From an uncultured delta proteobacterium (GTDB lineage: Bacteria; Desulfobacterota; Desulfobacteria; Desulfobacterales; B30-G6), in the NCBI GenBank assembly GCA_963823335.1, contig CAWGLD010000001.1, forward strand, positions 32,001 through 96,000: 64,000 nucleotides of DNA, written 5' to 3'. Positions within the stretch are counted from its first letter, which is position 1. The number at the start of each line of letters is the position of its first letter. Of this stretch, positions 10,673 through 31,212 are shown piece after piece. The notes under the pieces are model-generated. The model was not told the DNA's origin. It saw nothing but the letters and a program-made list of their open reading frames with translations, and did no database searches. A program made the translations under genes and the position numbers.

Positions 10673-10775
10673 TATACCGCTTGTCATAATAATGTTCCGA
10701 AAACAGGATGGCGGCATAAGGGGTTGTAGCAGAAAAAAGGTCCTCAATCGGAACGTTTTTCTGACAACCCCTATA
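10673..10775 (-). mobile_element. 103-bp MITE, copy 1 of 4
   Basis: Near-identical to 31258, 36319 and 56600; 28-bp imperfect TIRs, TA ends. Confidence 0.9.
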
Positions 10776-10797
10776 TCTAAACCACCCCGGTGGGCAC

Positions 10798-11238
10798 CTA
10801 TAGGTCGCCGCTTCTTCGTAAAAGAAGTTTTAGCTCGGCTTTTCGAATTCGCTCGGCCTGCTCATCTTTTCTTTTAAGAGCCGCTTCCAGCTTGGCGGTC
10901 AGTTCCCCAAAACGGGCCGGTTTTAAAAGATAATCAAAGGCCCCCAGTTTCAAGCCTTTCACCGCGCTCTCGGTGCTCCCATGACCGGTCAGCATGATGA
11001 CTTCAACCAGAGGGAACCTGTTTTTTATTTCCCTGAGGGTTTCGATGCCATCCATGCCCGGCATTAAAATATCCAGTATTACCACGTCAATTTCTTTTGA
11101 TTCTAAAATATCAAGACATTCCTGGCCGCTATGGGCCGGGGTAACGTTTTCGCCCGCCTCTTCCAGTCTGAGGCTAAGTATTTCTACAAAATCGTGTTCA
11201 TCATCAACCAGCAAAATTCGGATCGGTATTTTAATCAT
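10798..11238 (-). CDS. Single-domain response regulator
   Basis: ILLVDDE, LDILMPGMDG, LTGHG, YLLKP. Confidence 0.93.
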   Translation of the reverse strand: MIKIPIRILLVDDEHDFVEILSLRLEEAGENVTPAHSGQECLDILESKEIDVVILDILMPGMDGIETLREIKNRFPLVEVIMLTGHGSTESAVKGLKLGAFDYLLKPARFGELTAKLEAALKRKDEQAERIRKAELKLLLRRSGDL

Positions 11239-11257
11239 GATGATTTTTTTCTCCTAT

Positions 11258-14056: not shown

Positions 14057-14136
14057 TTCTTCCCCTTTCCTCCTGATGACAAGCTCCGTCTCCGGATCTG
14101 AATATACCGAAAGTCAAATCGAACATGCTGCATTCG

Positions 14137-14544
14137 CTATAGATTCTGCTTGCGATAGGCATGCGCCTCCATGATTTTTTCAATCAAGTCTTCCAATTCA
14201 CACGGTTTGGTAAGGTAGTCAAAAGCCCCCAGCTTGATCCCCTGTTCGGCAGCTTCCGCAGATCCATGCCCTGTCAGCATGATAACGACCAGCCGGGGGG
14301 CCATGATTTTAAGCGTTTTAAGCACTTCGATACCACTCATGTCTTCCATCTTCAAATCCAGGAGAGCCACATCAAACGTCTGGCCACGAAGCACCCGAAT
14401 AGCCTCGGTGCCGCTGTACGCCTTGACGACATCCATGTTCCTACGCTGGAGTCTCTTGGACACAATATTTACAAAATCCTTTTCATCGTCGATCAGAAGA
14501 AGACGAACGGGATCGGAATTTATATTTTTATTTGAACGGGTCAT
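14137..14544 (-). CDS. Single-domain response regulator
   Basis: LLLIDDE, LDLKM, LTGHG, YLTKP. Confidence 0.93.
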   Translation of the reverse strand: MTRSNKNINSDPVRLLLIDDEKDFVNIVSKRLQRRNMDVVKAYSGTEAIRVLRGQTFDVALLDLKMEDMSGIEVLKTLKIMAPRLVVIMLTGHGSAEAAEQGIKLGAFDYLTKPCELEDLIEKIMEAHAYRKQNL

Positions 14545-16256: not shown

Positions 16257-16275
16257 AGTCTTATTATCGCTTTTG

Positions 16276-16722
16276 CTAATATCCGCGTTTTGCTATAATT
16301 TCTTTAATATGGGCTTCCTGGATTTTTTTTTCGTGACCCCGTTTTTTCTGCGCAGCCTCATTGACTTTGCCCATCAATTGTTCCATGTCACAGGGTTTCA
16401 TCAAGTAGTCAAAAGCGCCAAACCTCATCCCTTCAATGGCTGATTCTACCGTAGCATGGGCAGTGAGCATGACAACTTCGATTATCGGGTAAGCGGCCTT
16501 CATTTTCTTGAGGGTTTCGATCCCATCCATACCGGGCATCTTGACATCCAGGATCACCACATCCACATTGGGATGTTTATCCAGGGTTTGCAATGCCTCA
16601 GGGCCGCTAAAGGCTGCAATCACGTCCAAATTCCTTTTCTCCAGACGTTTGGTCATGGTTTCTACAAAAGGGGTTTCATCGTCGACCAACATGACTAAAG
16701 GGGTAACTAAAGGGGAATTCAT
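16276..16722 (-). CDS. Single-domain response regulator
   Basis: MLVDDE, LDVKMPGMDG, LTAH, YLMKP. Confidence 0.93.
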   Translation of the reverse strand: MNSPLVTPLVMLVDDETPFVETMTKRLEKRNLDVIAAFSGPEALQTLDKHPNVDVVILDVKMPGMDGIETLKKMKAAYPIIEVVMLTAHATVESAIEGMRFGAFDYLMKPCDMEQLMGKVNEAAQKKRGHEKKIQEAHIKEIIAKRGY

Positions 16723-16923
16723 TTTATGTCTCCTTTTGGTTTAAACCTTAATTGTCGAGTTAAATACCGGGACTCTTTTTCTCTGTCAGATCTAAACCAA
16801 TCCGGGTCAAAGGTCAAGAATTGAACGCCCCCTTGTGCCGGTGGATAGTCTTATTGTAACCTATTTCCCGGATATGATATCATAGCAAATTTCCAATGTA
16901 AGTTCCGGATCAGTTTTTGTGGG

Positions 16924-16939
16924 AGCAAAGCCTGTGCCA
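16924..16939 (-). promoter_or_regulatory. sigma54 (-24/-12) promoter for the operon starting at 16722
   Basis: Minus strand TGGCACAGGCTTTGCT, full consensus. Confidence 0.88.
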
Positions 16940-17034
16940 AAAAAGGAAGGATTACTAACATGCTATTTTTTATTAGAAAACTATGATAAGGATAATCGCT
17001 TCCTTAAGAAAAGGGAAGGTGCTTGGGCTTGCGG

Positions 17035-17053
17035 GTGTCAGGTTTTTTTACAG
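17035..17053. promoter_or_regulatory. Putative upstream activator site (TGT-N11-ACA)
   Basis: GTGTCAGGTTTTTTTACAG, counterpart of 6071-6089. Confidence 0.6.
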
Positions 17054-17125
17054 TTTGTTAAAAAATCAAGCTGTGCTATGCATATAATGTGCTTGAGGCG
17101 TAAATTAAAAAAAGGAGCATAGGAT

Positions 17126-17347: not shown

Positions 17348-18100
17348 ATGCTATTAGCTACACTAATCAAAGCCAGCGTATTTTTAGGAAGGGCTCTTCT
17401 TGGGGCATCCCGTGACCTGGCACCCATCATCATCGTTATCGCGCTGTTCCAGGTCCTGGTCCTACATCAACCCTTCCCGGACTTTTTATCGATATTGGCC
17501 GGATTGGGACTGGTGATTGTTGGCTTAGCCCTTTTTGTGGTCGGTCTGGACATGGGTCTCTTTCCCCTGGGCGAAGCCCTGGCAGAAGAATTTGCACGTA
17601 AAGGCAGCCTCTTCTGGCTTTTGCTTTTCGCTTTTGCCTTAGGGACCGGAACCACCGTTGCCGAGCCGGCCCTGATAGCCGTCACACGCGAGGGGGCAAG
17701 AGCCGCCGCCGAGGCGGGACTTATTGACAATACCGTTACCGCGATAAAGCAATATGCGTTTGGCGTCCGTTTGACCGTGGCATTGTCCGTCGGCGCTGCA
17801 ATTGTTCTTGGGGTATTGCGAATTTTACGCGGTTGGTCCCTGCCAATTTTGATCGTCGGCGGCTACCTGCTGATTATGCTCATGACCGTGTTCGCACCAA
17901 AGGAGATCATAGGATTAGCGTATGATTCGGGCGGCGTCACCACCTCAACCGTTACAGTGCCACTCGTTACGGCCCTGGGTGTTGGACTCGCGCGCACCAT
18001 ACGCGGCAGAAGCCCATTGACGGACGGTTTTGGTCTCATCGCCCTGGCATCTCTTACGCCCATGATATTTGTGATGATTTACGGATTGATCGTCATTTAG
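17348..18100 (+). CDS. DUF1538 family membrane protein
   Basis: GLFPLGE, TVAEPAL, AYDSGGVTTSTVTVP, DGFGLIA. Confidence 0.9.
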   Translation: MLLATLIKASVFLGRALLGASRDLAPIIIVIALFQVLVLHQPFPDFLSILAGLGLVIVGLALFVVGLDMGLFPLGEALAEEFARKGSLFWLLLFAFALGTGTTVAEPALIAVTREGARAAAEAGLIDNTVTAIKQYAFGVRLTVALSVGAAIVLGVLRILRGWSLPILIVGGYLLIMLMTVFAPKEIIGLAYDSGGVTTSTVTVPLVTALGVGLARTIRGRSPLTDGFGLIALASLTPMIFVMIYGLIVI

Positions 18101-18107
18101 GGGAAAT

Positions 18108-18866
18108 ATGGAAATACTTTTTAACCCCATACTGCTGCTGATGGCCACAGCCAAAGAAGTGCTTCCGGTTCTCGGGCTGCTGGTTATATTTCAAACCCTT
18201 GTGCTCAAGAAACCACTTCCCCAGCCGGGTAGAATCCTCTTTGGATTCGTTGCCGTTCTGGTCGGTATGACCTGCTTTCTCGGTGGCTTGGATTTGGCTC
18301 TTTTTCCCATTGGCAGAACCATGGCGCTTCAACTGGCTGAGAGCGCCCAGTACGGTGGTAAGGCAACCTGGACAGCTTATGGATGGGTCTATCTTTTTGC
18401 CTTTTTGATGGGTTTTTCCACCACCATAGCAGAGCCGTCCCTCATCGCGGTGGCCCACAAGGCACATGAAGCCTCACGCCAGGCAATTTCATCCTGGGGC
18501 TTACGTATTGCAGTTGCTATCGGGGTTGGCTTCGGTATAACATTGGGTACCTTTCGTATCGTCACAGGTTCACCGCTGTATCTTTATATTATGGCTGGAT
18601 ATGTGGTGGTTATCATTCAAACCGCATTTGCACCCCGGATGATTATTCCATTGGCTTATGATTCCGGTGGTGTGACGACATCTACGGTAACCGTTCCACT
18701 GGTTGCAGCCCTTGGTTTGGGGCTGGCCTCCAGCGTTCCGGGCCGAAGTGTCGTTATGGATGGATTCGGGCTCATCGCGTTTGCCAGTCTGTTTCCAATC
18801 ATCAGCGTTTTGGGCTACGCCCAACTGGTTCAGTGGAGAGTGCAACGGAAAGCCCGTAAAACCTAA
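18108..18866 (+). CDS. DUF1538 family membrane protein (paralog)
   Basis: TIAEPSL, AYDSGGVTTSTVTVP, DGFGLIAFASL. Confidence 0.9.
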   Translation: MEILFNPILLLMATAKEVLPVLGLLVIFQTLVLKKPLPQPGRILFGFVAVLVGMTCFLGGLDLALFPIGRTMALQLAESAQYGGKATWTAYGWVYLFAFLMGFSTTIAEPSLIAVAHKAHEASRQAISSWGLRIAVAIGVGFGITLGTFRIVTGSPLYLYIMAGYVVVIIQTAFAPRMIIPLAYDSGGVTTSTVTVPLVAALGLGLASSVPGRSVVMDGFGLIAFASLFPIISVLGYAQLVQWRVQRKARKT

Positions 18867-19070
18867 AGTGAGCGTTTCAAATTTTAAGAATATTGGATTT
18901 AGAAATATTTTCAAAGGATTTGATCCATTTGGATTCTTAAAATTTGAAACCCGTTGGGATTGTCGATCTTACCGCATCTACGGTGTCAGATGCCATTCCG
19001 CATAGACCACTATAGCGAAATAGCATCTTCCTTGTATCTACGGCAACCTCGACAATCGCTCAATTTAGGT
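18861..19070. mobile_element. About 210-bp MITE-like element with internal hairpins
   Basis: Ends ACCTAAAGTGAGCG / CGCTCAATTTAGGT (13/14 inverted); perfect 18-bp internal inverted repeat 18874-18891 / 18933-18950. Confidence 0.6.
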
Positions 19071-19148
19071 AAAAACAAACAAAGTACTGCCCGAGTATAA
19101 GTGCAAAGCTAAAATATGGAAGGAATCGGGCGAAAGTGATGGCGCGCA

Positions 19149-19472
19149 ATGGTGTATAAATGCATACTCGCAATGGTGAAGCCGGACTTGACCGGTATGG
19201 TCGTCGATTCTGCTAAAGAAGTAGGTGCCACCGGAGCGACAATCATACCCGCTTCGGGCACAGGTGCCCATGAAGCGAAAACCTTTTTCGGCCTCAGCCT
19301 GGATATTCGCACGGATGTGGTTCTTTTTCTGGTGGACAATGAAATTGTTGAAGCGGTCCTATCTGCCATTCAAGAGGCCGGGCGGTTTAACGAACCCGGC
19401 ACGGGAATCGCTTTTGTGCTGGCTGTCGAGCAGACAGCCGGATTGGAAAGTCAGACGTCACCGCATCGGTAA
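19149..19472 (+). CDS. P-II family signal protein
   Basis: GATGATIIPASGTG, PGTGIAFVLAVE; usual partner of DUF1538 genes. Confidence 0.88.
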   Translation: MVYKCILAMVKPDLTGMVVDSAKEVGATGATIIPASGTGAHEAKTFFGLSLDIRTDVVLFLVDNEIVEAVLSAIQEAGRFNEPGTGIAFVLAVEQTAGLESQTSPHR

Positions 19473-19562
19473 CGACCTGCACTTTTGCGTATTCCAAGAA
19501 CCGAAATGTGTTTAAACAGCTAGGATGCTGGAACGCTGCTGTCCGCTTATAGCTGTCAGCCA

Positions 19563-19629
19563 CCCTCCAACCCTTGTGTCACCCTCGGCCCCTCCAACCC
19601 TTGTATCACCCTCTGCCCCTCCAACCCTT
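19563..19629. repeat. 27-bp tandem repeat, about 2.5 copies, G-run rich on the minus strand
   Basis: Unit CCCTCCAACCCTTGTRTCACCCTCKGC at 19563 and 19590, partial at 19617. Confidence 0.85.
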
Positions 19630-19633
19630 CCCT

Positions 19634-21088
19634 TTACCCTTTGGAATCCATGAGCGCCTTGAGCTTCAAGGCCAGATCACTCATGGGCTCCGCCTTGGTG
19701 TTTTGTGAATAATTCTCCCAGCCGCCTTCTTCCGCTGCATCGCCCGGTACCAGGGTAATCTTCCGGTCCCGCACGTTTATCTCAGCCACGCTGACACTGA
19801 GCGACTCGCCGGGTTTGAGTTGTTCCAGATGACCGGGTTTTTCAGCCAGGTTGAATTTCGATTTCGGCAACAGACCGGTGATCCCCGGCACCAGCGTTAC
19901 GAAATATCCAAACGTTTCCTTGTGCTCCAGCGTTCCCGTGACGACCTGACCGACCTTGAAAGTGTCCGACACCTCGAGCCACGGGTCTCCCTGGGTGTCG
20001 CGCATACTGAGGGATATCCTGCGTTTCCTGGGGTCGATATCCTTGATCAATACAGAAACGCTTTCCCCCGGTGTCACCTCGTCTGCAGGTTTCACCACAC
20101 GCTTGACATAGCTCATTTCACTGATGTGAACCAGTCCTTCTATACCCGGTGCGATCTCCACAAATACACCGAAATCCATACAACGGGTCACCGTGCCGTT
20201 GACCTTGTCTCCAGAATTGAACTTTTCCGACACCTGGTTCCACGGATCTTCCGCCACCTGCTTCATGGAGAGAGAGATCTTTTTGGCGCCCTTCTTGTCG
20301 CTCCCCGTGATGCCGATGACCTTCACCAACACCCTGTCGTCGGCCTGGACCACCTGCTCGGGTTTTTCCACCCTGGACCAGCCCAACTCCGAAACATGTA
20401 CCATACCCTCCAGACCCGGAATCAGCTCGACAAATGCACCGTAAGGCATGAGTTTGGTGACACGCCCTTCCACAACATCGTCCTGCTTCAATGTGCTCAA
20501 GAAGGATGCTTTTTCTTTTTCCATGGCCTGGGCCAGTATCTTTCGCCGGGAAACCACGATGTTTTTTCCATTATCCTCAAACTGCGTAATCAGAAATTCA
20601 TATCCCTGGCCCACATAATCTTCCGGTGTTTCGACATATGCGACATCCATCTGGCTGATGGGACAAAACGCACGGCGGCGAAGGATTTCCACGTTGAACC
20701 CACCTTTGCAGGTGGCCTGTACTTTTCCTTCCACGGGAATGGCGCTCTGAAACGCTTCTCTCAACATTTCCACACCGCCGATACCGGAGATGGCCTTGGA
20801 AAGACGTATTTCATGCTCATCGCGCGCCACCACGTACAGCTCCAAGTCGTCACCTTCCGCAAACGGCAGGTTTCCTTCACTGTCCAACAGCTCTGCCCGA
20901 TCCACAATACCGTCCACCTTGGTGCCGATATCCAGAAAAATGGCGTCCTTTCCTATGGATATGATCTTGCCGGAAATCTTGTCGCCGAGTTCAAGATCGT
21001 CACTCATACCGGCGCTGTAGGATTCGAAAAGATCGGCAAAACTTTCTTCTTGCGGGTCATTGTTTTCATTTTCAATTTGGTCTGACAT
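19634..21088 (-). CDS. rpsA: 30S ribosomal protein S1 (short form)
   Basis: ESFADLF N-terminus; repeated S1 domains (YGAFVEL..GLEGMVHVSEL, FGVFVEI..GIEGLVHISEM). Confidence 0.88.
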   Translation of the reverse strand: MSDQIENENNDPQEESFADLFESYSAGMSDDLELGDKISGKIISIGKDAIFLDIGTKVDGIVDRAELLDSEGNLPFAEGDDLELYVVARDEHEIRLSKAISGIGGVEMLREAFQSAIPVEGKVQATCKGGFNVEILRRRAFCPISQMDVAYVETPEDYVGQGYEFLITQFEDNGKNIVVSRRKILAQAMEKEKASFLSTLKQDDVVEGRVTKLMPYGAFVELIPGLEGMVHVSELGWSRVEKPEQVVQADDRVLVKVIGITGSDKKGAKKISLSMKQVAEDPWNQVSEKFNSGDKVNGTVTRCMDFGVFVEIAPGIEGLVHISEMSYVKRVVKPADEVTPGESVSVLIKDIDPRKRRISLSMRDTQGDPWLEVSDTFKVGQVVTGTLEHKETFGYFVTLVPGITGLLPKSKFNLAEKPGHLEQLKPGESLSVSVAEINVRDRKITLVPGDAAEEGGWENYSQNTKAEPMSDLALKLKALMDSKG

Positions 21089-21307
21089 GGTTCCACCCCA
21101 TAAAAGGTTAAAGAAATCTGATGATGGTTCACCTATATTTAACTAAACTCAGGCGATAGGTAGGCGAGGAAGCCGCTATTTGCAACAGTTTTTTGATTTT
21201 CAGGTCCAAAAAGACGTGTTTCGGTGTTTTTTCATGGATAGGGGAAGAAATCAGGCTTTGCTGCGAAGAAAGTGAATCTCCACACGCTTATAAACATGAG
21301 GATCTAC

Positions 21308-22306
21308 CTAACGCTTGAATCTTAAAATGAGGGGTTTTGTTGCTTTGGAATGGTCATCACCAGAATTATCAAATACGGCCATTGCGAAACCATACCGCTT
21401 TAAAGGGTTAAAAACCACATCATCCTCATGACCGGTATCCAGTTTTCTGGTGAACATTACGGTCCAAAAGCCATCCGCATAATGACTTTCAGCCTTCACG
21501 TCAAATCGAGATCCATCCGGCTTAACGGGCAATCGATAGGGAATGATGTCTCCAACTCCAAATTTATCATAATCTTGTATTTTTACAGCCTGCTCAAAAA
21601 GAAGGATACCGGGGATGGTGGGTTTTTTATCCGGATCCTGCATATATACGGGTCTTAATCCATTCATATCCTCATTTCTTATGTCTCCTCCGGTGCCGAA
21701 ATCTTTCCGTCTTCCTGTTTCGCGATAGGACCCGGATGGGTTCCCGGCCACGGTCAGCCATGCATCATCTGCATACCCATACGGAGCCGAACGAGCGGCT
21801 TTCCAATGCCATAAGTCACCTTTTTCCACATCGGTTCGTGTCGCGAACCGCCATTTTTCCTTGGGAATGTCAGGAGGACTGTGGCACGTAACCGCACACC
21901 CCCGCGTGGCAAATTTTTGAATTCGCGTCGTTTCGAACAGCAATGCAATCCGATCTTCATTGCCCTCCATATGGACCCATTCATTGCCATTAAACCGCCA
22001 TGATTGCTTGATAACACTGTGGGTTGCATCTCTCCATCTCAACCTGAAATACACGCTGTCATCCGTGTAGGCCGCTTGTGTAGACACAACACCATTGGTC
22101 ACGTCAACAATTTCCCTTCCCTGGACAGGGATATCGATCCCTTTAAAATTCTGCCAGATGGCATCGTCCAAGCCTTTTGGCGCTTGTACAAGGTGTTCCG
22201 CGCTGATCATCAATGTGTCGGCTGCCATGAGAAAATTCCTTCCTAAGGGCAGAAGAACCAAAACCAACGAAAAGAGAACCAGACAAAAAGATTTACCACA
22301 ACTCAT
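21308..22306 (-). CDS. Exported EbdC/DOMON-like heme-binding protein (ethylbenzene dehydrogenase gamma-related)
   Basis: Signal peptide; YFRLRWRD, NEDRIA, GCAVTCH, DLWHWKA, RKLDTG, AVFD. Confidence 0.85.
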   Translation of the reverse strand: MSCGKSFCLVLFSLVLVLLPLGRNFLMAADTLMISAEHLVQAPKGLDDAIWQNFKGIDIPVQGREIVDVTNGVVSTQAAYTDDSVYFRLRWRDATHSVIKQSWRFNGNEWVHMEGNEDRIALLFETTRIQKFATRGCAVTCHSPPDIPKEKWRFATRTDVEKGDLWHWKAARSAPYGYADDAWLTVAGNPSGSYRETGRRKDFGTGGDIRNEDMNGLRPVYMQDPDKKPTIPGILLFEQAVKIQDYDKFGVGDIIPYRLPVKPDGSRFDVKAESHYADGFWTVMFTRKLDTGHEDDVVFNPLKRYGFAMAVFDNSGDDHSKATKPLILRFKR

Positions 22307-22339
22307 AACAAACCTCTACCTTGTGATTACACGCCCATG

Positions 22340-23404
22340 TTAATGTGCAGTGGTTCCAAAATGTTCAAAATAACCCATAAAGGACAGCGTCAGCAGAAGA
22401 ACCGCTATCGCTGCTGCCGGTATGATAGTTTTCAATCTCTTGGCAGGGTGACGCTCTGACGAACGATCAAGAAAGGGCAACAAAAGCACCAGCCCTGTCA
22501 GGCAGCCTGGAATAATCGCGGACCCCATCACCATTAACGGTCCCTTAAAAATCGCCACCAACTGGTTTAAAAATAAAACCCACCATTCTGGTCTGGGTAC
22601 AAAATTGGAATCGGTGGGATCCGCCGGGTCTCCAAACGAAGAGGGCCAATACCAGCTGATTAGGCCCAAGATCAATGTAACCATCAGAAACAACACCATA
22701 AATCGGCTTATAATGGTCGGGGTTGTCGTTTTCTTGGCGTCACCGTTACTTGTTAGCAGCAACTCCGCTAAACCGCGCCGATAAATAAAGTGGAAATGCA
22801 CAGCAATAAACAGCAATAACGCGCCCGGTAAAACGAGTATATGCAACACGTAAAATCGTGTCAGGGCAACGATACCGGTTAAAGATCCACCTTGAAGAAT
22901 CCGGGTCATGAAATCACCCACCAGTGGTACAGACGAAATAATACTTAGCCGCACCTGGGTAGACCAATATCCTTTCTGATCCCAGGGGAGCAGGTCCCCG
23001 GTGATGATAAACAAGGGAAAGATCATGAAGGTCAACACCCCGGACACCCACACCAGCTGTCTCGGGGACTTGTATGCCCCAGCAATCATCGCCCGCAGCA
23101 AATGCAGTCCCGACGTGATCAAGAGCAGGTTCCAGGCATAATGGTGAATACCCCTGATAACACTTCCGAAAGGAAGGTTGAAAATAGAATAATCAACGCT
23201 GTCATAAGCCGCTCCAGGAACAGGGGAGTAGTAAAAAGCCATGACCCCCCCGGACAACAACAGGAGTAGAATCAAAACCAGGATCAGCGAACCTGAAAAG
23301 CGGCGCCAGGAAAGAGCATTGTCGGAGACTTCAAATGTCCGAAGCCTGCCGACAAGCTCTTTCAATGCAAGAAATTCAAGTAATATATCAAACCGACTTG
23401 TCAC
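22340..23404 (-). CDS. Cytochrome b of a Rieske/cytochrome b complex (b6 and subunit IV-like parts fused)
   Basis: Four heme His (RGIH, GLH, YVLH, AVH), LPWDQKGYW, LTRFY, PRPEWW. Confidence 0.92.
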   Translation of the reverse strand: MTSRFDILLEFLALKELVGRLRTFEVSDNALSWRRFSGSLILVLILLLLLSGGVMAFYYSPVPGAAYDSVDYSIFNLPFGSVIRGIHHYAWNLLLITSGLHLLRAMIAGAYKSPRQLVWVSGVLTFMIFPLFIITGDLLPWDQKGYWSTQVRLSIISSVPLVGDFMTRILQGGSLTGIVALTRFYVLHILVLPGALLLFIAVHFHFIYRRGLAELLLTSNGDAKKTTTPTIISRFMVLFLMVTLILGLISWYWPSSFGDPADPTDSNFVPRPEWWVLFLNQLVAIFKGPLMVMGSAIIPGCLTGLVLLLPFLDRSSERHPAKRLKTIIPAAAIAVLLLTLSFMGYFEHFGTTAH

Positions 23405-23548
23405 AATCTTCCCCTCGCATGGAGCTATTGGTCTTGGCGCTGGTGTTCCTTACGTTATAAACGCTCATTATCAAGTTCGAGCGGTTGTTCGACCTAATTT
23501 TCCATAGCAGTTTCGGAACATTATTCTGACAAACGCTATAACAAGCGG

Positions 23549-24538
23549 CTATCGTTTGAAACTCAGAGTGATAACTTCGGAATCATAAGAATTTTCATCT
23601 CCGGAATCATCAAACAATGCCAGAGCAAAGTTGTAATTCTTGCGCACATTAAAGGCAACATCGTCGTCATTGCCGGTGTCCAGTTTTCTATGAAGCAAGA
23701 CTGTCCAACCCCCATCCGCATAGCGGCTCACTGCCTTGATATCGGCCCTGGATCCTTCAGGCGGAGTGGGCATCTGGTACGTAAGCGTATCGCCTGCTTT
23801 GAATATGGAGTAATCACTTATTTCTACGATATCCGAAGCGAGCAGGATGCCGTCATCGGTAAGCTTTTTGCCGGGCGCCAGCATATATTTCGGTTTCGAT
23901 TTGTCCTCCGTCATATTTTTCTGGTCACCGCCCTTGCCTGCGTCGCTCTTTCGTCCGCCACCCTTTTCACCTATTTTTGTCAGCCATGTATCGTCGGCAA
24001 ATCCGGCAGGATCTGATCGAGCTGCTTTCCAGTGCCAGAGGTCACCTTTCTCCGCCTCTGTGGTTGTCCCGAATTTCCCTTCTGAGGCATTGGGCGCTCC
24101 GGATGGCACATGGCAGGTAATCGCACAACCTTTTGTGGCAAAGTTGTTGATTCGATTAATTTCAAAAAGTATCGATATGCGGTCTTCATTACCTTTCTGA
24201 TGGCTCCATTTCTCGCCATCGTACTGCCAGGCACCCTTCGTCAAGCTCTTTGTTGCATCGCTCCATTTGAAGAGGAAGTAGATGTCGTCATCGGAATAGA
24301 CTGCTTTGGTACTGACAGATGTTTTTTCCCCGGCAAATTTTTCCTTTCCATCAAAAGGAACAATAATTCCCTTGGCCTTTTCCCAGACGGCATCATCCAA
24401 CCCAGAAGGCCCTGATTTTACATGCTGTACAATCAAGGTCTCCTTGGACGCGCCGATGGCCTCATTTGACTTCATGAAAAATGCACCAAAAACCAGAATC
24501 GCACAAATCGTCAAGCTTACAATAAATTTTATGCCCAT
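23549..24538 (-). CDS. Exported EbdC/DOMON-like heme-binding protein (paralog)
   Basis: Signal peptide; YFLFKWSD, NEDRIS, GCAITCH, DLWHWKA, RKLDTG. Confidence 0.85.
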   Translation of the reverse strand: MGIKFIVSLTICAILVFGAFFMKSNEAIGASKETLIVQHVKSGPSGLDDAVWEKAKGIIVPFDGKEKFAGEKTSVSTKAVYSDDDIYFLFKWSDATKSLTKGAWQYDGEKWSHQKGNEDRISILFEINRINNFATKGCAITCHVPSGAPNASEGKFGTTTEAEKGDLWHWKAARSDPAGFADDTWLTKIGEKGGGRKSDAGKGGDQKNMTEDKSKPKYMLAPGKKLTDDGILLASDIVEISDYSIFKAGDTLTYQMPTPPEGSRADIKAVSRYADGGWTVLLHRKLDTGNDDDVAFNVRKNYNFALALFDDSGDENSYDSEVITLSFKR

Positions 24539-24570
24539 GTTATTATCTCCTTTTTTGGGGGTCCATTATT

Positions 24571-25143
24571 TTAGAAGGATAGATAAACCAGCAAATTGCC
24601 TTCATTTATCTTATGTTCCAATGTTGACAACGCTCGTGTCGGCGGCCCAGCTACAGGCTTACCATCCGCATCAAATCTACCGGAATGACAGGGGCAATCA
24701 AAGGATTGTGTGTCGTCACGCCAGATCACATTACATGCCAGGTGGGTACAGGTTGATGAGAATATTTTGAATCGATCGTCTGCTTCCGCCCTAGCCCACA
24801 CAAATCCTCGTTGAGGCAGAACCAACCACCCATCTTTCACCATAAACTCATAGGCAAGCATCTGAAAGCCGGTCGCTTGAATATCTGTGGTTGCACCAAA
24901 ATCAACCCATTTTCCGGTTCCCTTTTTCATGGCAGGCGCGATGAGATAGGAAATTAGTGGAATACCGGTGAGGAATGAGGCGCAGCCCATCAATGTGGCA
25001 ACCTGGAGAAAGCCCCTCCGATCGGCCTTGATAGGTTCCGCTGACGACATTGCATCATTGGCAATGGCAATTTTGCCGCTGTTCATTTGCTTGAGTCCTT
25101 CATCCATGGCAACAATTGAAACACTATAGAACTCCTGAGGCAT
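24571..25143 (-). CDS. Rieske 2Fe-2S subunit
   Basis: Tat-type RRGFL plus TM anchor, CTHLAC, CPCHSGRF, GPP; real start may be 25086. Confidence 0.93.
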   Translation of the reverse strand: MPQEFYSVSIVAMDEGLKQMNSGKIAIANDAMSSAEPIKADRRGFLQVATLMGCASFLTGIPLISYLIAPAMKKGTGKWVDFGATTDIQATGFQMLAYEFMVKDGWLVLPQRGFVWARAEADDRFKIFSSTCTHLACNVIWRDDTQSFDCPCHSGRFDADGKPVAGPPTRALSTLEHKINEGNLLVYLSF

Positions 25144-25200
25144 ATCGATTGCTTATTGAATGGCAATACACCTCATAGTAAACACCGTATATGAGTGAAT

Positions 25201-25238
25201 GTGAAAAAAACGTGAACTTAGTGTAAAATGTTTGTGAA
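25201..25238 (-). promoter_or_regulatory. Tandem OmpR-family (ColR-type) binding boxes upstream of the Rieske operon
   Basis: GTGAA/GTAAA at 25201, 25212, 25223, 25234 (11-bp period); minus strand TTCACGTTTTTTTCAC and TTCACAAACATTTTAC. Confidence 0.72.
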
Positions 25239-25300
25239 TTTTAGCGATGAGAGGTTATTTATGAGGAAAAAACGGGAAATGCTTTGGTTAGCAGACAATT

Positions 25301-26635
25301 CTATTGTGGCATACTATCACTCAAATCCTTGGGATGCGGCGCAGATGAACTGCTTGCGGACTGAAAAAACAATGATACTTTTGTCCCTTTCCCCAGATCA
25401 CTTTCTATTTGAAAGCGCCAGCCGAACCGATCACATAGCCTACTCACAATAGACAGACCCAGTCCATATCCTTGACTGCTTTCTCCCCTGGAATATGGTT
25501 GGGTTACCCTGTCTAATTCACAAGGATCAATGCCCTCACCTGTGTCTGTGATAGATACGCTGTCACCACAGACCTGTATGGAAATCGTTCCATTCAGGGT
25601 GTGATGGAAAGCATTGTTAATCAAATTGGTGATAACCGCCCTCAATACAGGAGGTGGCGCGTTGAGAATGGGTTGGGCCTCTTGTACAAAGTGTATTTTG
25701 ATCGACTTGTCGGCAAGAAGATGACGCTTTTGTTTGACGACATCCTGAATCACGGGTACAACAGCACATATCTGGCTGGAATCGATTGTTAATCTTTCTC
25801 TTCCCAACCAGAGGAAGGTTTCTATAATGTTTTCCATGTTTGCCACCGCACGTGAAATACGCTGCACAGGTCTATAAACCGACCGCTCTTCCATAGCAGA
25901 TTGCTTCTTCAATATTTCAACCGCTCCCTTGATCACCGTAACCGGGGTCCTCAATTCATGACTGGCATCCCTTGTAAATTTTTTCTCCCGTTTGATAAAT
26001 GCGTCTACCCTTGTCATGGCCGTTTCCAGTGTTTTTGCAAGAAGTCCGACCTCATCATTTGAGAAAGATCCGTGAAGATCCATCGGCAGCTTTTCCGGGC
26101 CGGATTCCCTAACCTGTTCTGAAAGATAGACAACCGGTGCGATGATTTTTCGGGATGTCATCATTCCGATCCATATGGCCAACACAACAATCAGGATGAC
26201 GCCAATGCTGAGAACAATACCGATATAGAGTTTCCGGGTTTCCGTGAATTCAAGGGCACTTACGTTGTAAAGCATATACAGCGGCTCCGTTCGATTCGGG
26301 TATAGCTTTACCGCGACATGGTACTCAATTCCCTGGTAATATTTTTCATGAATACCTTCGCTGATACCCTCGACCATCGATGCTGCAAAGTCCGGCATCG
26401 ACTTACTACCGGCGTATACATTTATATGAGACGAATTGGGCGATAAAAGACCGGCGTGTTCTTGATATTGAAGCCCTACACGAGCCATTTCTTCAGACAG
26501 ACGACTATCGATCATTTTGTCATCGATAAAGTCCAGAGAGATATATATGACCAAAGAAAAAATAATTCCGAGTCCTGTACCGAACAGACAGAATGTAAAA
26601 ACAATTCGCTTCCGAAGACTATGACGAAATTTCAT
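25301..26635 (-). CDS. Sensor histidine kinase, ColS-like
   Basis: MKFRHSLRKRI N-terminus, GIHE, ExxE (EFTE) before TM2, HAMP, FTRDASHELRTP. Confidence 0.9.
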   Translation of the reverse strand: MKFRHSLRKRIVFTFCLFGTGLGIIFSLVIYISLDFIDDKMIDSRLSEEMARVGLQYQEHAGLLSPNSSHINVYAGSKSMPDFAASMVEGISEGIHEKYYQGIEYHVAVKLYPNRTEPLYMLYNVSALEFTETRKLYIGIVLSIGVILIVVLAIWIGMMTSRKIIAPVVYLSEQVRESGPEKLPMDLHGSFSNDEVGLLAKTLETAMTRVDAFIKREKKFTRDASHELRTPVTVIKGAVEILKKQSAMEERSVYRPVQRISRAVANMENIIETFLWLGRERLTIDSSQICAVVPVIQDVVKQKRHLLADKSIKIHFVQEAQPILNAPPPVLRAVITNLINNAFHHTLNGTISIQVCGDSVSITDTGEGIDPCELDRVTQPYSRGESSQGYGLGLSIVSRLCDRFGWRFQIESDLGKGTKVSLFFQSASSSSAPHPKDLSDSMPQ

Positions 26636-27341
26636 TAGACCTCCCCAAACAATATCCAACACCACGAACCGTTTGAAGAAGAGGTGTGCTAAATGGCCTG
26701 TCTATGGCACGTCGCAGTGCATAAATATGGCTGCGCAAGGCATCACTTTCAGGGGGCAAATCACCCCACAGTGCATATTCGATTTCTTTTCGCTCAACGA
26801 CATTGGGGTAGGCTTTCATTAGCATTGCAAGAAGGTTTAAACAGGTACGATTCAACTCGATGAGTTTCCCGGACCTTCGAACCTTCATGGTTCCCAAATC
26901 CAGTTCCAGATCAGCCACATGAAATTGTTTTTCAGTTAAATCAATACCCCGGCGAACGATCGCATTAATTCTTGCCGAAAGCTCTTTTAGGGCAAAAGGC
27001 TTAACTAGATAATCATCCGCTCCGGAATCAAAACCAGCGAGCTTGTCATCGAGGGTGTCACGAGCGGTCAGCATCAGAATAGGGGTTTGTTTTCCACCCT
27101 CTTTTCTGAGTTTTCTACAAAAAGTGAGTCCATCCATTCCCGGTAGCATGACATCCAATATGATCGCATCATAATCCTGGGTCAATGCCAGGTGCAACCC
27201 ACCGATGCCATCCATGGCAAAATCCAGTTGATGCCCACCGGCTTCCATGAAATCCGCAATATTTTCAGCGATATCGATGTTGTCCTCCACAACAAGGATA
27301 CGTAAAAGACTTTTCTGTTTAAAGGCTGACAATTCCATCAA
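26619..27341 (-). CDS. OmpR-family response regulator, ColR-like
   Basis: RILVVEDN, GLHLA, LTARDTLDDKLAGF, ALWGDLPPESDALRSHIYALRRAIDRPF, TVRGVGY. Confidence 0.93.
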   Translation of the reverse strand: MMELSAFKQKSLLRILVVEDNIDIAENIADFMEAGGHQLDFAMDGIGGLHLALTQDYDAIILDVMLPGMDGLTFCRKLRKEGGKQTPILMLTARDTLDDKLAGFDSGADDYLVKPFALKELSARINAIVRRGIDLTEKQFHVADLELDLGTMKVRRSGKLIELNRTCLNLLAMLMKAYPNVVERKEIEYALWGDLPPESDALRSHIYALRRAIDRPFSTPLLQTVRGVGYCLGRSNEISS

Positions 27342-28504
27342 TCAAACCGCTCCCCTTTTTGCCGTACAAACTCCAAGAAACTTTCTCTTTTCGGAATTTG
27401 GAAAGGCATGTCTTCCAGATTCTCCGCGATGGGGAATCGACCATAGGTATGACACGCCGCCACGGCCGCATGAATATGATCCGATGGTGTATCAGCAGGA
27501 ATCTGGTTGAGATGAATCATACAGCGTCCGTTTCGCGCCATCTTGTCGATATAGAGCTTGATGCGTTCCACAATCGCCTCAACTGGCCCAGCTTTCAGCA
27601 ATGTTGCATCGACACCGGCGGATACAAAGGCGTTGTGCTTATTTGCAAATGCCTTCACTCTCTCCGGGCCGATGTCGTACAAATCCGGATCCAGCACACT
27701 CAGGGAGCCGGGACTGCATTTGAGTTTTTGCAAGAAAAAACGCTCCGGGTCTCTGCTTTTTGCATCACCCCAGTTCCCTCTTGTAATCACGTTGTCGCCT
27801 AATCTGTCTCGCAGTCGCTCAGTGTAAGCCACTACATATTCATCCATCATATCAAGGGTGATCATCGGAGGAGAGGCCCAGGCATCACGTCCATCGATGA
27901 TCAGATTCTCATTTCCGGCCTCGCTTCTCATCACTTCGATAAAGGGTACGATAGCATCGTCACACAGAAATTTAAACAGACGATGCACAAAGCGCGGCCG
28001 ATCGAACATATCCGTGACCAGGTTTTCATATCCCCGGATATTTGCAGCAATGCTGAACGGTCCGGAAAAATAGACCCGCTCTAGCTTTCCCGTCATTTCC
28101 AGGAAATGTTTATTGACCTCCCGGACCCACGGCATGCGGCCGGATTTATATGGATCAGGGGGGATGATTCGATCCAGATCCGATGGTGTACGTATGAGCG
28201 GCCGGGTACGGTCGGTATCTGGTATCCCCCTGGAAGGATAAATGACTCTTTGTCCCAGGGCTTCGGCCTCTATGTTGTATACGTCCCAGAAATTACTGAC
28301 CAGATCGAAGCGGTAGTATTCGGTAACGAGGAGTTGTATCTGCGTAAAAGTAAGCGCGTCTGTGAAGAAACGTTTTGCTGAAACACCTGCGATATGAGCT
28401 GAATGGTCATTGCTTTGAGCTCCGATGGCAATATTGGTTTCTTGGGTGGTCGGGCCTGTGCCCGTTTTTCTTGCTATTGTCATGATAAAGCTCCATAGCA
28501 TCAT
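27338..28504 (-). CDS. Uroporphyrinogen decarboxylase / MtaA-CmuA methyltransferase family protein
   Basis: YNIEAEALG, PDPYKSGRMP, GPFSIAANIRG, IPADTP..HI. Confidence 0.8.
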   Translation of the reverse strand: MMLWSFIMTIARKTGTGPTTQETNIAIGAQSNDHSAHIAGVSAKRFFTDALTFTQIQLLVTEYYRFDLVSNFWDVYNIEAEALGQRVIYPSRGIPDTDRTRPLIRTPSDLDRIIPPDPYKSGRMPWVREVNKHFLEMTGKLERVYFSGPFSIAANIRGYENLVTDMFDRPRFVHRLFKFLCDDAIVPFIEVMRSEAGNENLIIDGRDAWASPPMITLDMMDEYVVAYTERLRDRLGDNVITRGNWGDAKSRDPERFFLQKLKCSPGSLSVLDPDLYDIGPERVKAFANKHNAFVSAGVDATLLKAGPVEAIVERIKLYIDKMARNGRCMIHLNQIPADTPSDHIHAAVAACHTYGRFPIAENLEDMPFQIPKRESFLEFVRQKGERFD

Positions 28505-28615
28505 ACCGGCCGGTTGTCATTCAATATCCCAATGAACACCCGAGATCCCCACACAGGCTCCATAGGATTTTGGATATTATATCTTGACAGCAGCATATCC
28601 GGTTCGTAATCTCCT

Positions 28616-28761
28616 TAGAAGCTATCTCAAAATAGTTTTTTGGCCCAATTTCTGTGTTGGTCCCTTGCTTCAACTCCTCGGAATACTTCAGTATGCCTGC
28701 GGGTTGAATTTCGGGCCCGCCTTGAACTTGAACCAAAACCCTTTTTTTGAGATAGCTTCTA
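28616..28761. mobile_element. 146-bp MITE
   Basis: Perfect 17-bp TIR TAGAAGCTATCTCAAAA / TTTTGAGATAGCTTCTA, non-coding interior. Confidence 0.85.
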
Positions 28762-28788
28762 TCATATTTTTTTGGGGGAGGTTGACCA

Positions 28789-31212
28789 ATGATTCAAAAC
28801 TACGAGAAGCTCGGTGCTTTTTATCTCGGCAAGGAATATGACCTGGCCACCCGTACGCTCAAAGAGGACCTGATTCTCTACGATTCCAAAGATCTCAATA
28901 CCCACGCGGTCATCATCGGCATGACCGGCAGTGGTAAAACAGGACTTGGCATCGGTCTTCTGGAGGAAGCGCTGATCGACAACATCCCCATTATTGCCAT
29001 CGATCCCAAAGGGGATCTGCCCAACCTGCTTTTGACCTTTCCAGACCTTGACCCCATGGATTTCCAACCCTGGGTGAATACCCAGGATGCTCTCAACCAG
29101 GGTCTCAGCATCGACAAATTCGCTGCCAAGCAGGCTGAAACCTGGCGCAAGGGACTCGCGGACTGGGGCCAGGCACCGGAACGCATCGCCCGTCTGAAAG
29201 CTGCGGCGGAGTTTACCGTGTACACCCCGGGAAGCCATGCAGGGGAGCCGGTAAGTGTTCTAAAATCCTTTGCTCCCCCGCCGTCTGCAATTCTTGCAGA
29301 AACCGACCTGTTTCGCGAATGTGTCCAGACCACGGCCACAGGTATCCTCGCCCTTTTGGGGATTCAAGCGGATCCCATCACCAGCCGGGAGCACATCCTG
29401 ATTGCCAAAATCCTTGAGGCTGTCTGGTCTGAGTCCAGGAGTCTCGATATCGCCGGTTTGATCCATACCATTCAATCCCCGCCCTTCGAACGTATTGGGG
29501 TGATGGATCTGGAGATGTTCTACCCTGCCAAAGACCGATTTGCCCTGGCCATGCGTCTGAACAACCTCCTGGCATCACCGGGTTTTGAAACCTGGATGGA
29601 AGGCAGGCCCCTCAACATTGGACAGATGCTGCATACTGACCAGGGCAAACCCCGCGCCTCCATTTTTACCATCAGCCATCTTTCAGATACCGAACGAATG
29701 TTTTTCGTTTCCATGCTCCTCAACGAGATTGTCGGATGGATGCGAACCCAGGCCGGCACATCCAGTTTGCGTGCTATTTTGTACATGGATGAAATTTTCG
29801 GATACTTCCCTCCCATCAGCAATCCACCCTCCAAAACACCCCTTTTGACACTTCTGAAGCAGGCACGCGCTTATGGACTGGGCGTGGTGCTGTCTACCCA
29901 AAACCCGGTGGATCTGGACTATAAGGGGCTTGCCAATACCGGTACCTGGTTTATCGGTCGTCTGCAGACCGAACGTGACAAGGGGCGGGTTCTGGAAGGT
30001 CTTGAAGGCGCTGCTGCGGGGAGTCGATTTGATCGCGGTCGTATGGAAGAAATCCTGGCAGGCCTGGGCAAACGGGTATTTCTCCTGCATAACGTGCACG
30101 AAAATGAACCTGTTATTTTCCAGACCCGCTGGGCCTTGTCCTATTTGCGGGGCCCCATGACCCGGGAGCAGATTAAAGCCTTAAAAGCCGACAAGGCGAG
30201 CCAACAGCCGGTGATTGACAATCTATCGGAATCGCTTGCAGCCGGTCCGATAAAACCGGTTGAGCCTGCCCAGGTCCTAACAGGCCCGCCGACACTGCCG
30301 CCGGGGGTTGAAACATTTTATATGCCTGCCTCCGGGGCCGGTCATGGTGTGGTGTATTATCCTGGTGTAATCGGTCGTATGGATGTCCACTATGCCGATG
30401 CCAGGTATATGGTGGAAACCACTGAGACACTGGCGCTTGTCGCCCAGTTGGGAGATGGTCCTGTTGCCCTGGACTGGGACAGTGCTGTGGAAGTTGACCC
30501 TTTCGCCATTGAGACCGTGCCGGTCTCCGGGGGGCAATATGCTGATCTGCCCACAGCGGCATCCAAGGTCACCAACTACCGCAAGTGGAACAAGGACCTG
30601 TTACGCTGGGTAAGTCAAAACCGTCCGAAGTTGCTTTTGCGTTCAAAACGTTTTGGCATGACCAGTCAACTGGGTGAATCCGAGGGCGAGTTTCGATCGA
30701 GACTGGCACAAACAATGCGTGAAAAACGGGATCTGGAAGTTGAGAAGCTGCGCAGAAAATACAGCAAGCGCTTCACGACGTTGAAAGATCGACTGATGCG
30801 CTCCGAGCAGGCCATTGACAGGGAATCCGAGCAGGCCAAGGCCTCAAAAATGCAGACGGCGATTTCCTTTGGCACCGCCATTCTGGGTGCCTTCCTGGGT
30901 CGTAAGGCCGTCAGCACCACATCGGCTTCAAGGGTTGGAACCGCCATGAGATCCGCCAGTCGCGTCAAAAAGGAAAAAATGGACGTGGTCAGGGCCTCAG
31001 AGAGGGCTGAGGCGATCCGTCTGCAACTGACCGAACTCGACGAACGCCTGCAGGCGGATATGGATACGATCGAGCTGTCCCTGGATACGGATGTGGAAGA
31101 GCTCGAGGAAATCAGCATAAAACCCAAAAGCACGGGTATCACCCTGGAGGTCTTTGGGCTGACCTGGATGCCGTTTAGAAGGAATGCCGGCGGCGGGATG
31201 AGCGCAGAATAA
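28789..31212 (+). CDS. HerA/FtsK-superfamily ATPase (DUF87-type) with C-terminal coiled coil
   Basis: Walker A GMTGSGKT, IDPKGD, Walker B LYMDE, KQARAYG, STQNPVDLD. Confidence 0.85.
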   Translation: MIQNYEKLGAFYLGKEYDLATRTLKEDLILYDSKDLNTHAVIIGMTGSGKTGLGIGLLEEALIDNIPIIAIDPKGDLPNLLLTFPDLDPMDFQPWVNTQDALNQGLSIDKFAAKQAETWRKGLADWGQAPERIARLKAAAEFTVYTPGSHAGEPVSVLKSFAPPPSAILAETDLFRECVQTTATGILALLGIQADPITSREHILIAKILEAVWSESRSLDIAGLIHTIQSPPFERIGVMDLEMFYPAKDRFALAMRLNNLLASPGFETWMEGRPLNIGQMLHTDQGKPRASIFTISHLSDTERMFFVSMLLNEIVGWMRTQAGTSSLRAILYMDEIFGYFPPISNPPSKTPLLTLLKQARAYGLGVVLSTQNPVDLDYKGLANTGTWFIGRLQTERDKGRVLEGLEGAAAGSRFDRGRMEEILAGLGKRVFLLHNVHENEPVIFQTRWALSYLRGPMTREQIKALKADKASQQPVIDNLSESLAAGPIKPVEPAQVLTGPPTLPPGVETFYMPASGAGHGVVYYPGVIGRMDVHYADARYMVETTETLALVAQLGDGPVALDWDSAVEVDPFAIETVPVSGGQYADLPTAASKVTNYRKWNKDLLRWVSQNRPKLLLRSKRFGMTSQLGESEGEFRSRLAQTMREKRDLEVEKLRRKYSKRFTTLKDRLMRSEQAIDRESEQAKASKMQTAISFGTAILGAFLGRKAVSTTSASRVGTAMRSASRVKKEKMDVVRASERAEAIRLQLTELDERLQADMDTIELSLDTDVEELEEISIKPKSTGITLEVFGLTWMPFRRNAGGGMSAE

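Follow-up and report, generated by a model that had tools for sequence, protein, structure and literature searches.

A two-component pair, made up of an OmpR/PhoB-type response regulator and a sensor histidine kinase, stands directly upstream of an operon for a Rieske protein, a cytochrome b, and two EB_dh-fold proteins in a 64,000-nucleotide (nt) stretch of contig CAWGLD010000001.1 from an uncultured delta proteobacterium (here referred to as the window). The gap between the kinase and Rieske genes carries four direct repeats, the proximal pair of which matches the DNA box of the Pseudomonas regulator ColR exactly, and the link between the pair and the operon is conserved in other genomes together with these boxes. 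Judging from sequence, we file the pair as a member of the wider ColRS/RaxRH clade and not as a ColRS ortholog, and it is very probable that the regulator directly controls the Rieske operon. The best explanation of the whole, which we hold with roughly even confidence, is that the output of a ColRS/RaxRH-clade pair has shifted from envelope genes to a respiratory operon, with a probable metal signal and with activation as the mode of control.

Four direct repeats in the kinase-Rieske gap

The genes of the locus lie on the minus strand in the order URO-D-like gene, regulator, kinase, 157-bp gap, Rieske, EB_dh, cytochrome b, second EB_dh, and ribosomal protein S1 (Table 1). Read in the direction of transcription (25238 to 25201), the gap contains TTCAC-AAACAT-TTTAC-ACTAAG-TTCAC-GTTTTT-TTCAC, and the preliminary description of this DNA, which had reported four half-sites at 11-bp spacing, was right in both count and position. 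A search of the window for the four-repeat pattern gave a single match without mismatches, compared to 0.01 expected, and any match at all was obtained in 1 of 100 shuffled sequences. A repeat pair alone is not significant (7 matches in the window at ≤1 mismatch versus 4.63 expected). The proximal 16 bases, TTCACGTTTTTTTCAC at 25216 to 25201, are the only place in the window that fits the ColR consensus YYNASNNYTTTTTSAC without mismatch, confirming the resemblance to the P. putida ColR box that had been proposed earlier; when one mismatch is allowed, the consensus matches 8 times in the window, versus 3.45 expected. In the original publication (PMC2689224), this consensus is written (T/C)(T/C)NA(C/G)NN(T/C)TTTTT(C/G)AC, the window 16-mer also lies inside the footprinted PP0737 site listed in Table 1 of that paper, and the other ColR sites of the same table are likewise TTCAC-type direct repeats 11 bp apart. 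An Rfam search of positions 19000 to 30000 (E ≤ 1) gave zero matches and therefore no riboswitch or other known RNA in the gap.

Conservation of the pair, the repeats, and the operon

Co-occurrence of the boxes, the pair, and the operon in other genomes had been proposed as a check, and it was found in the form of one locus with the same boxes, four contigs with adjacent or nearly adjacent accession numbers, and longest-contig matches above chance. A GTDB scan with the kinase alignment returned at least 80 loci, most of them with distant kinases owing to the generic pattern ASHELRTPV. Locus L001, from a Desulfobacteraceae metagenome-assembled genome (MAG), encodes a kinase and a regulator that are 51% and 66.5% identical, respectively, to those of the window, in the order regulator, kinase, gap, Rieske, cytochrome b6, subunit IV, and one EB_dh protein. 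Its gap holds TTCAC-N6-TTTAC-N6-TTCAC-N6-TTCAC at 11451 to 11488, which is the same block in the same place as in the window. When the two gaps are aligned, only the four-box block and a TAMTAT hexamer (TACTAT in the window, aligned to TAATAT in L001) stand out, and the flanks diverge. The distance from the last box to the start codon, which was assigned by eye, is 115 nt in the window, counted to M20 of the Rieske open reading frame (ORF), and 116 nt in L001, counted to GTG 11604. If TACTAT is taken as the −10 element, the predicted boxes would fall at about −70 to −33, and nine bases closer in L001. A fifth TTCAC, which lies 6 bp beyond the fourth repeat of the window and is not found in L001, accounts for this 9-bp difference in the distance from the boxes to the presumed −10 element.

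Beyond L001, three MAG contigs have consecutive NCBI accession numbers for the kinase and Rieske proteins, with EB_dh next in one of them, as in the window; in a fourth contig, the kinase and EB_dh numbers are two apart. We also compared the best 120 homologs in each of the kinase, Rieske, and EB_dh lists for identical longest-contig values, a procedure whose counts are lower bounds. At least 11 feasible matches were obtained for kinase and Rieske (0.82 expected), at least 7 for kinase and EB_dh (0.62 expected), and at least 9 for Rieske and EB_dh (0.98 expected), and at least 16 of 119 kinase clusters had a match, with about one expected. Two matches (1,367 and 1,872 bp) were counted as chance because contigs of this length are too short for both genes.

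Placement of the regulator and kinase

The regulator tree comprised 85 rows, namely the regulators encoded next to kinases in the retrieved loci, with seven E. coli proteins added as references, and the kinase tree comprised 34 rows; both were obtained by quick search from loci sampled by their likeness to the window kinase, without Pseudomonas ColR or ColS. The regulator falls in a 20-row clade, with a Shimodaira-Hasegawa-like approximate likelihood ratio test (SH-aLRT) value of 100, that includes the RaxRH-like loci L010 and L015 and excludes BasR/QseB (its sister), CusR/HprR, PhoB, PhoP, and OmpR. The same 20 systems form a clade in the kinase tree (SH-aLRT, 97), and across the trees the kinase and regulator are set apart from BasRS, QseBC, CusRS, HprRS, PhoPQ, PhoBR, and EnvZ-OmpR.

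L010 and L015 are Xanthomonadales pairs whose kinases have RaxH-type motifs. The neighbor of L010 is a phosphoglycerol-transferase-like sulfatase-family gene, and those of L015 are PAP2, ArnT-like, and ArnC-like genes. A lipid A gene neighborhood of this kind is the basis on which Stewart and Ronald (2021; PMC8306577) treated RaxRH as the ColRS ortholog; an ExxE motif just before the second transmembrane segment (TM2) is a ColRS/RaxRH criterion in section 3.2 of that paper. The recognition helix reads DALRSHIYALRRAID in the window regulator and DMLRSHIYELRRSVD in that of L010. Similar helices occur in L001, L002, L004, L007, L009, and L015, those of BasR, QseB, and CusR differ, and LRSHIYALR is common to the RaxR-like clade.

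No NCBIfam model claims the regulator or the kinase. The best NCBIfam match of the regulator, to the CzcR/SilR/CopR model (TIGR01387), scored 191.2 bits against a cut-off of 279.2, and assignment to the heavy-metal CopR/CzcR/CusR regulators was rejected both on this score and on the position of CusR and HprR outside the regulator clade. Identity of the kinase as PorY, PhoR, or PmrB was rejected because the corresponding NCBIfam models score far under their cut-offs.

The periplasmic domain of the kinase

We placed the kinase start at ATG 26635, and not at the GTG of the longest ORF, because this Met begins 110 of the 120 homologs listed. These homologs are the best 120, with 49 to 100% identity and the window protein included, and the residue counts that follow refer to them. 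The protein consists of TM1, a periplasmic domain of ~100 amino acids (aa) from about residue 35 to about residue 137, TM2, a HAMP-like linker, HisKA, and HATPase_c. As had been claimed previously, an ExxE motif lies just before TM2; it reads E129-F-T-E132, and each Glu is present in 120 of 120 sequences. E97, E104, and H106 are equally invariant (120 of 120 each) and H96 is present in 118 of 120, with many of the periplasmic positions between these conserved Glu and His residues varying freely. An AlphaFold model of residues 8 to 170 (predicted local distance difference test score, 85.6) shows a small α/β domain between two long helices, in the order helix, four strands and one short helix, helix, with ExxE at the beginning of the helix that leads into TM2. 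The best fold match in the PDB is an integrative model of WalK (1.7e-3), followed by weak matches to Cache/PDC ligand-binding domains.

ColS is described as having a 96-residue periplasmic domain with conserved H95, E96, and H105 and an ExxE pair, E126/E129 (PMC4074579). H96, E97, H106, E129, and E132 of the window kinase are the position equivalents of these five residues, with a numbering offset of one to three; the correspondence was drawn from residue numbers and from a published alignment inspected by eye. In the ColS/RaxH periplasmic alignment (PMC8306577, Fig. S1), also read by eye, the elements G-x-H-[DE], Y-H, and [FL]-E-x-x-E follow in the same order before TM2. Metal binding and a metal response have been described for ColS of two species (PMC4074579 and PMC13524251), and in a 2026 study of P. 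aeruginosa ColS, the E96-H105 pair is described as essential for Cu2+ binding and as contributing to the Zn2+ response (PMC13524251). A general trait of ColRS/RaxRH-type systems is that excess Zn, Fe3+, Mn, or Cd (or Cu) activates them. On the basis of the conserved positions, the signal for the window kinase may be a metal cation, a proposal to which we give slightly less than an even chance.

Boxes and putative targets across the clade

The exact ColR consensus was found in 6 of the 87 loci listed (L001, L002 with two overlapping matches, L004, L013, L036, and L076), which places it in 4 of the 5 other loci of the window regulator's own subclade versus 2 of the 82 remaining loci. Of the 87 loci, no more than three (L001, L002, and L005) have three consecutive repeats, all of them in the 20-member clade, and a TTYAC-N6-TTYAC pair occurs in 16 of the 80 loci listed. 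The boxes of L002 lie ahead of a small ORF and of an HlyD-DUF2860-AcrB operon whose last genes are the regulator and kinase. In L013, an identical TTCACGTTTTTTTCAC (18423 to 18438, minus strand) lies ~100 bp upstream of a 326-aa gene heading an OEP/AcrB efflux cluster, and this cluster adjoins a related two-component pair. L009 and L011 have related pairs beside resistance-nodulation-division (RND) pumps. Boxes precede the regulator gene in L004 and L005, and TTTAC repeats also precede a DmsA-type reductase gene in L005. In the window itself, no box was found ahead of the URO-D-like gene or of the regulator gene, which gives no indication of the autoregulation suggested for L004 and L005. As read from these loci, the pairing of regulator and predicted box is conserved and the putative regulated module is exchanged, the module being the Rieske operon in the window family; the target appears to have been rewired because sister systems carry the same box before RND efflux operons.

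Further genes were observed beside related pairs. L005 has an additional repeat pair upstream of a NapC/NirT-cytochrome b561-c7 cluster. In L005 and L006, both Deferribacterales MAGs, TorA-like and DmsA-like molybdoenzymes are encoded directly downstream of related pairs (9100 to 17100). In L008, a gammaproteobacterial MAG, a related pair is followed by an 830-aa MtrC/MtrF-like multiheme cytochrome (11369 to 13858); no TTYAC pair was found in this locus.

The Rieske/cytochrome b/EB_dh operon

The Rieske protein has an RRGFL twin-arginine motif and the cluster motifs CTHLAC and CPCHSG. Its true start is probably ATG 25086 (M20), after AAGGA, because its relatives, at 158 to 170 aa, cover only 78 to 96% of the 190-aa ORF. 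It scores under the cut-off of the NCBIfam b6f/bc1 Rieske models. The cytochrome b has the Qo motif PEWW (Qo motif types are described in PMC4122944) and scores 168.7 bits with the NCBIfam cytochrome b6 model, which is also under the cut-off.

In the first EB_dh protein, the residues C138, C142, and H143 of a CxxCH motif have at most one exception in 123 sequences, including the paralog and the L001 protein. Because CxxCH is conserved, both EB_dh proteins are predicted to carry covalent heme c and to be monoheme c-type cytochromes with the fold of the heme b gamma subunits of type II DMSO reductases. Both start with a signal-like segment at the N terminus, which may be removed to leave soluble carriers. 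No cytochrome c1, cytochrome f, or class I or multiheme c subunit was found in the operon, whose only heme c proteins are the two EB_dh proteins. The first of them is the most conserved protein of the module (68 to 92% identity over the best 120 of 896 matches), and its relatives are named "ethylbenzene dehydrogenase-related" or hypothetical in their sources. At E ≤ 0.001, there are 896 EB_dh and 429 Rieske relatives, widespread in sediment metagenomes. An EB_dh protein also gave a weak PDB match to NxrC (7b04_C; E, 0.0012). Identity as a type II DMSO-reductase gamma subunit was rejected, as the two proteins score 38.9 and 42.1 bits with TIGR03477 against a cut-off of 169.85 and the window has no molybdopterin gene; such gamma subunits are encoded together with molybdopterin alpha and Fe-S beta subunits and bind heme b non-covalently, whereas the CxxCH here implies covalent heme c. 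We found no description of a bacterial Rieske/cytochrome b operon with EB_dh-type cytochromes in the open-access PMC and bioRxiv literature.

The paralogous EB_dh genes flank the cytochrome b gene, and both products have the CxxCH motif and a WHWK motif. L001 has one EB_dh copy and a split cytochrome b.

Proposed mechanism and alternatives

In the mechanism that we propose, the kinase would sense a periplasmic signal through its small α/β domain, held between the two membrane helices. This signal, most likely a metal cation, would be bound by H96, E97, E104, H106, E129, and E132. The kinase would phosphorylate the regulator, and the phosphorylated regulator would bind the four TTCAC repeats, probably as two tandem dimers because the repeats lie on one face of the DNA. 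The repeats are predicted to cover the −35 region, and the stretch just before it, of a promoter ahead of the Rieske gene, and the regulator would recruit RNA polymerase to this promoter, which lacks a −35 element; binding would most likely activate transcription, as PhoB does at pho boxes. The resulting complex would oxidize menaquinol and reduce the EB_dh cytochromes in the periplasm, with EB_dh replacing cytochrome c1 or f as the acceptor. Gene content, motifs and their conservation, clade membership, and the conserved linkage with conserved boxes are what the sequences show; that the regulator binds and activates, what the signal is, and which way and to which acceptor electrons flow are inferences.

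Several observations weigh against this reading. Linkage to the operon was seen directly in one of the 80 loci listed (L001), and adjacency by accession number presumes that NCBI numbers proteins along a contig in gene order. The window pair forms a subclade of its own with L001, L002, L003, L004, and L013, and none of the lipid A genes lpxE, eptA, and arnT was found among the ORFs of ≥110 aa in the window. For these two reasons, and because the trees lack Pseudomonas ColR/ColS, we do not call the pair a ColRS ortholog; the composition of the trees also means that the ColRS link rests on RaxRH-like proxies, a published alignment inspected by eye, and residue numbers from the literature. The original designation of the pair as ColR/ColS-like therefore stands for sensor layout, recognition helix, tree position, and box, and does not extend to strict orthology. 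With respect to the sensor, a PDB fold search with the model gave 0 matches at E ≤ 0.001, and hence no solved metal sensor; L002, L003, and L004, the nearest relatives after L001, have no ExxE at the aligned place; and ExxE is described as modulatory in P. aeruginosa ColS and not as the main metal-binding determinant in vitro (PMC13524251). With respect to the gap, a scan with the sigma-70 consensus found no minus-strand site, the −10 hexamer TACTAT was picked by eye, and a plus-strand match at 25201 to 25229 consists of the repeats themselves. A terminator scan found none between the kinase and Rieske genes, and read-through from the kinase gene is therefore possible.

The sensor observations bear on whether the same wiring might serve a non-metal signal, the periplasmic Glu and His residues sensing pH, envelope charge, or another periplasmic cue. 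Of the 19 sequences aligned, 8 have ExxE at the corresponding position, and L002 to L009 and other relatives lack it there; its absence from L002 to L004 indicates that sensor input varies inside the subclade as well as in the clade. The relatives stand beside modules as different as S/N-oxide reductases (L005 and L006), an MtrC-like cytochrome (L008), and RND pumps (L002, L009, L011, and L013), and the sensor model has a generic small PDC/Cache-like fold. His and Glu residues of PmrB sense mild acid. Set against this, all five of the published metal-relevant positions of ColS have invariant or near-invariant equivalents in the window kinase, and ColS itself is a metal-binding and metal-responsive sensor in the two species studied. 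The earlier statement that ColS senses metals through ExxE is to be qualified by the in vitro result for P. aeruginosa ColS (PMC13524251). We consider a non-metal signal possible but unlikely.

A metal signal could also be given a more specific role, that of a metal-gated respiratory switch in which the kinase would detect periplasmic Fe(III) or another redox-active metal and induce a menaquinol:cytochrome c oxidoreductase with the EB_dh cytochromes as its metal-reactive end. The EB_dh cytochromes are structural kin of FoxC, which is implicated in archaeal iron oxidation. We regard such a switch as improbable; if true, uncultured Desulfobacterales would possess an inducible means of dissimilatory metal reduction or, with the flow reversed, of metal oxidation, and the ColR-type box would have moved repeatedly among envelope, efflux, and respiratory regulons. 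A part for the complex in metal redox chemistry or detoxification had been suggested earlier; it may instead serve ordinary respiration.

It is quite improbable, in our judgment, that the regulator binds the repeats but represses the operon or does no more than tune transcription that continues in from the kinase gene. In favor of such a role, the proximal repeats, like the fifth TTCAC, extend into the presumed −35 to −10 spacer, no terminator-like site separates the kinase and Rieske genes, and ColR represses some of its targets, such as the arnB operon (PMC8306577, section 3.2). However, the gap has no recognizable −35 hexamer, and L001 retains the placement of the block with respect to the start codon. 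Activated OmpR/PhoB-type promoters, moreover, usually have this layout, with tandem same-face repeats taking the place of a −35 element, which counts against repression.

Finally, although a single repeat pair is not rare, either in the window or among the 80 loci, and T-rich intergenic DNA favors TTCAC-type matches, it is very improbable that the repeats and the adjacency are coincidental and that the pair regulates genes elsewhere with the Rieske operon independent of it, given that so rare a four-in-a-row block recurs in the same gap of L001, that three in a row are confined to 3 of 87 loci, all in the clade, and that the adjacency recurs in many contigs.

Other features of the window

The regulator and kinase genes share a 17-nt overlap. 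The TGA of the URO-D-like gene overlaps the regulator ATG by one base, and because of this shared base the gene is probably co-translated with the two-component pair; against the NCBIfam MtaA/CmuA models, it scores far under the cut-off. In L001, the URO-D-like gene is not upstream of the pair, and a hybrid kinase and a solute-binding protein are found there instead. The window has a G+C content of 47.9%, and the named relatives are Desulfobacterales and Thermodesulfobacteriota MAGs.

No genes for metal efflux, oxidases, or molybdoenzymes were found in the remainder of the window, which consists of other signaling, transporter, and housekeeping genes. A dense run of signaling genes at 978 to 16722 includes two dCache kinases, four single-domain receivers, and one sigma-54 activator, interspersed with two DASS/CitMHS-type transporters and a MOT1-type molybdate transporter. 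Within it (11261 to 12500, minus strand), a 266-aa ORF with a receiver and HisKA overlaps a 155-aa ORF with HATPase_c only, which looks like a single kinase split over two frames or two overlapping genes. Two neighboring paralogous DUF1538 membrane proteins are encoded at 17348 to 18866 (plus strand), and an 807-aa protein with a weak N-terminal HerA/DUF87 ATPase match is encoded at 28789 to 31212 (plus strand), divergent from the URO-D-like gene.

Table 1. Coordinates of the genes, motifs, and putative regulatory sites at the locus, as positions in the window
Feature	Position	Strand	Basis or remark
URO-D / MtaA-CmuA-like methyltransferase-family gene	27338..28504	−	Pfam URO-D, 1.7e-21
OmpR/PhoB-type response regulator, 239 aa	26619..27338 (ORF to 27341)	−	Pfam Response_reg and Trans_reg_C
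Sensor histidine kinase, 444 aa	25301..26635 (longest ORF to 26665)	−	Pfam HisKA and HATPase_c, weak HAMP
Periplasmic His/Glu cluster H96, E97, E104, H106	26318..26350	−	Homolog conservation
ExxE motif E129-F-T-E132	26240..26251	−	Periplasmic end of TM2
Four direct repeats TTCAC/TTTAC, 11-bp spacing	25201..25238	−	Proximal pair is an exact ColR-box match
Fifth TTCAC	25195..25199	−	Out of 11-bp register; read from sequence
Candidate −10 hexamer TACTAT	25175..25180	−	Picked by eye
Rieske 2Fe-2S subunit, twin-arginine signal	24571..25143	−	Pfam Rieske
EB_dh-fold protein, signal peptide, CxxCH	23549..24538	−	Pfam EB_dh, 1.7e-53
Cytochrome b, b6-like N part fused to subunit-IV-like C part	22340..23404	−	Pfam Cytochrome_B, Cytochrom_B_N_2
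Second EB_dh-fold c-type cytochrome (predicted; paralog)	21308..22306	−	Pfam EB_dh, 3.7e-51

Comparison with known systems

In pseudomonads and xanthomonads, ColRS-type systems are known to regulate the envelope and metal tolerance. In the window, which stems from a sulfate-reducer-like lineage, the same sensor layout, recognition helix, and box appear tied to a respiratory complex, and in sister systems to RND pumps, which would be a clear example in nature of a regulon rewired while its cis-element was retained. A defined sensor and box would also offer a way to learn under which conditions sulfate reducers use a bc-type complex, without the need to cultivate the organism. The combination had been put forward as undescribed, and indeed we found no ColRS-type system beside a Rieske operon in the open-access PMC and bioRxiv literature. 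OmpR-type regulators that lie beside or control Rieske/cytochrome b operons include Rhodobacter PetR, upstream of petABC, and Bacillus ResDE with qcrABC; these systems answer to redox or oxygen and are not known to belong to the ColRS clade or to have an ExxE sensor.

The comparison with Pseudomonas ColS-ColR (PP0902/PP0901 and PA4380/PA4381) was made through published residues, an alignment figure, and the box. Both systems pair an OmpR-type regulator with an EnvZ-type kinase that has a periplasmic domain of ~96 to 100 aa, ExxE beside TM2, and a His-Glu pair and a further His at nearly equal residue numbers, and in both the box is a direct TTCAC repeat at 11-bp spacing with a T-rich spacer. 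They differ in that the predicted target here is a respiratory operon and not lipid A or envelope genes, with no lpxE/eptA/arnT neighborhood, in that the host is Desulfobacterales-like, and in that four tandem boxes stand in place of the one core box of ColR sites.

RaxH-RaxR of the Xanthomonadales shares the clade in both trees through L010 and L015, has a regulator that is 50% identical with a nearly identical recognition helix, and has ExxE before TM2 and the G-x-H-[DE] motif. In contrast, the kinases are only 27 to 28% identical overall, RaxH has a second ExxE after TM1 that is absent here, and RaxRH, unlike the window pair, adjoins eptA/lpxE/arnT-type genes (PMC8306577). No TTYAC-N6-TTYAC pair was found in L010, L015, or L016. 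PmrB-PmrA (BasS-BasR) is the sister of the clade in the regulator tree (SH-aLRT for the join, 84), and PmrB senses Fe3+/Al3+ through a periplasmic ExxE (PMC8306577). It lies, however, outside the 20-member clade in both trees, with the recognition helix LEVHIHNLR. The PmrA box also differs from the ColR-type box.

For the operon itself, SoxLN-CbsAB of the Sulfolobales likewise combines a Rieske/cytochrome b core with an extracytoplasmic heme protein that is not of the c1/f type, the monoheme cytochrome CbsA, but it is archaeal, aerobic, and heme b-type, whereas the window proteins have an invariant CxxCH. No two-component system is known beside SoxLN-CbsAB. CbsA itself has the EB_dh fold. EB_dh proteins with added heme c sites occur in another context in Nitrospina, and FoxC, which has a heme domain like the EB_dh gamma subunit, has been likened to CbsA (PMC13741234). 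By analogy of composition, the nearest described counterpart to the operon is thus archaeal SoxLN-CbsAB and FoxC.

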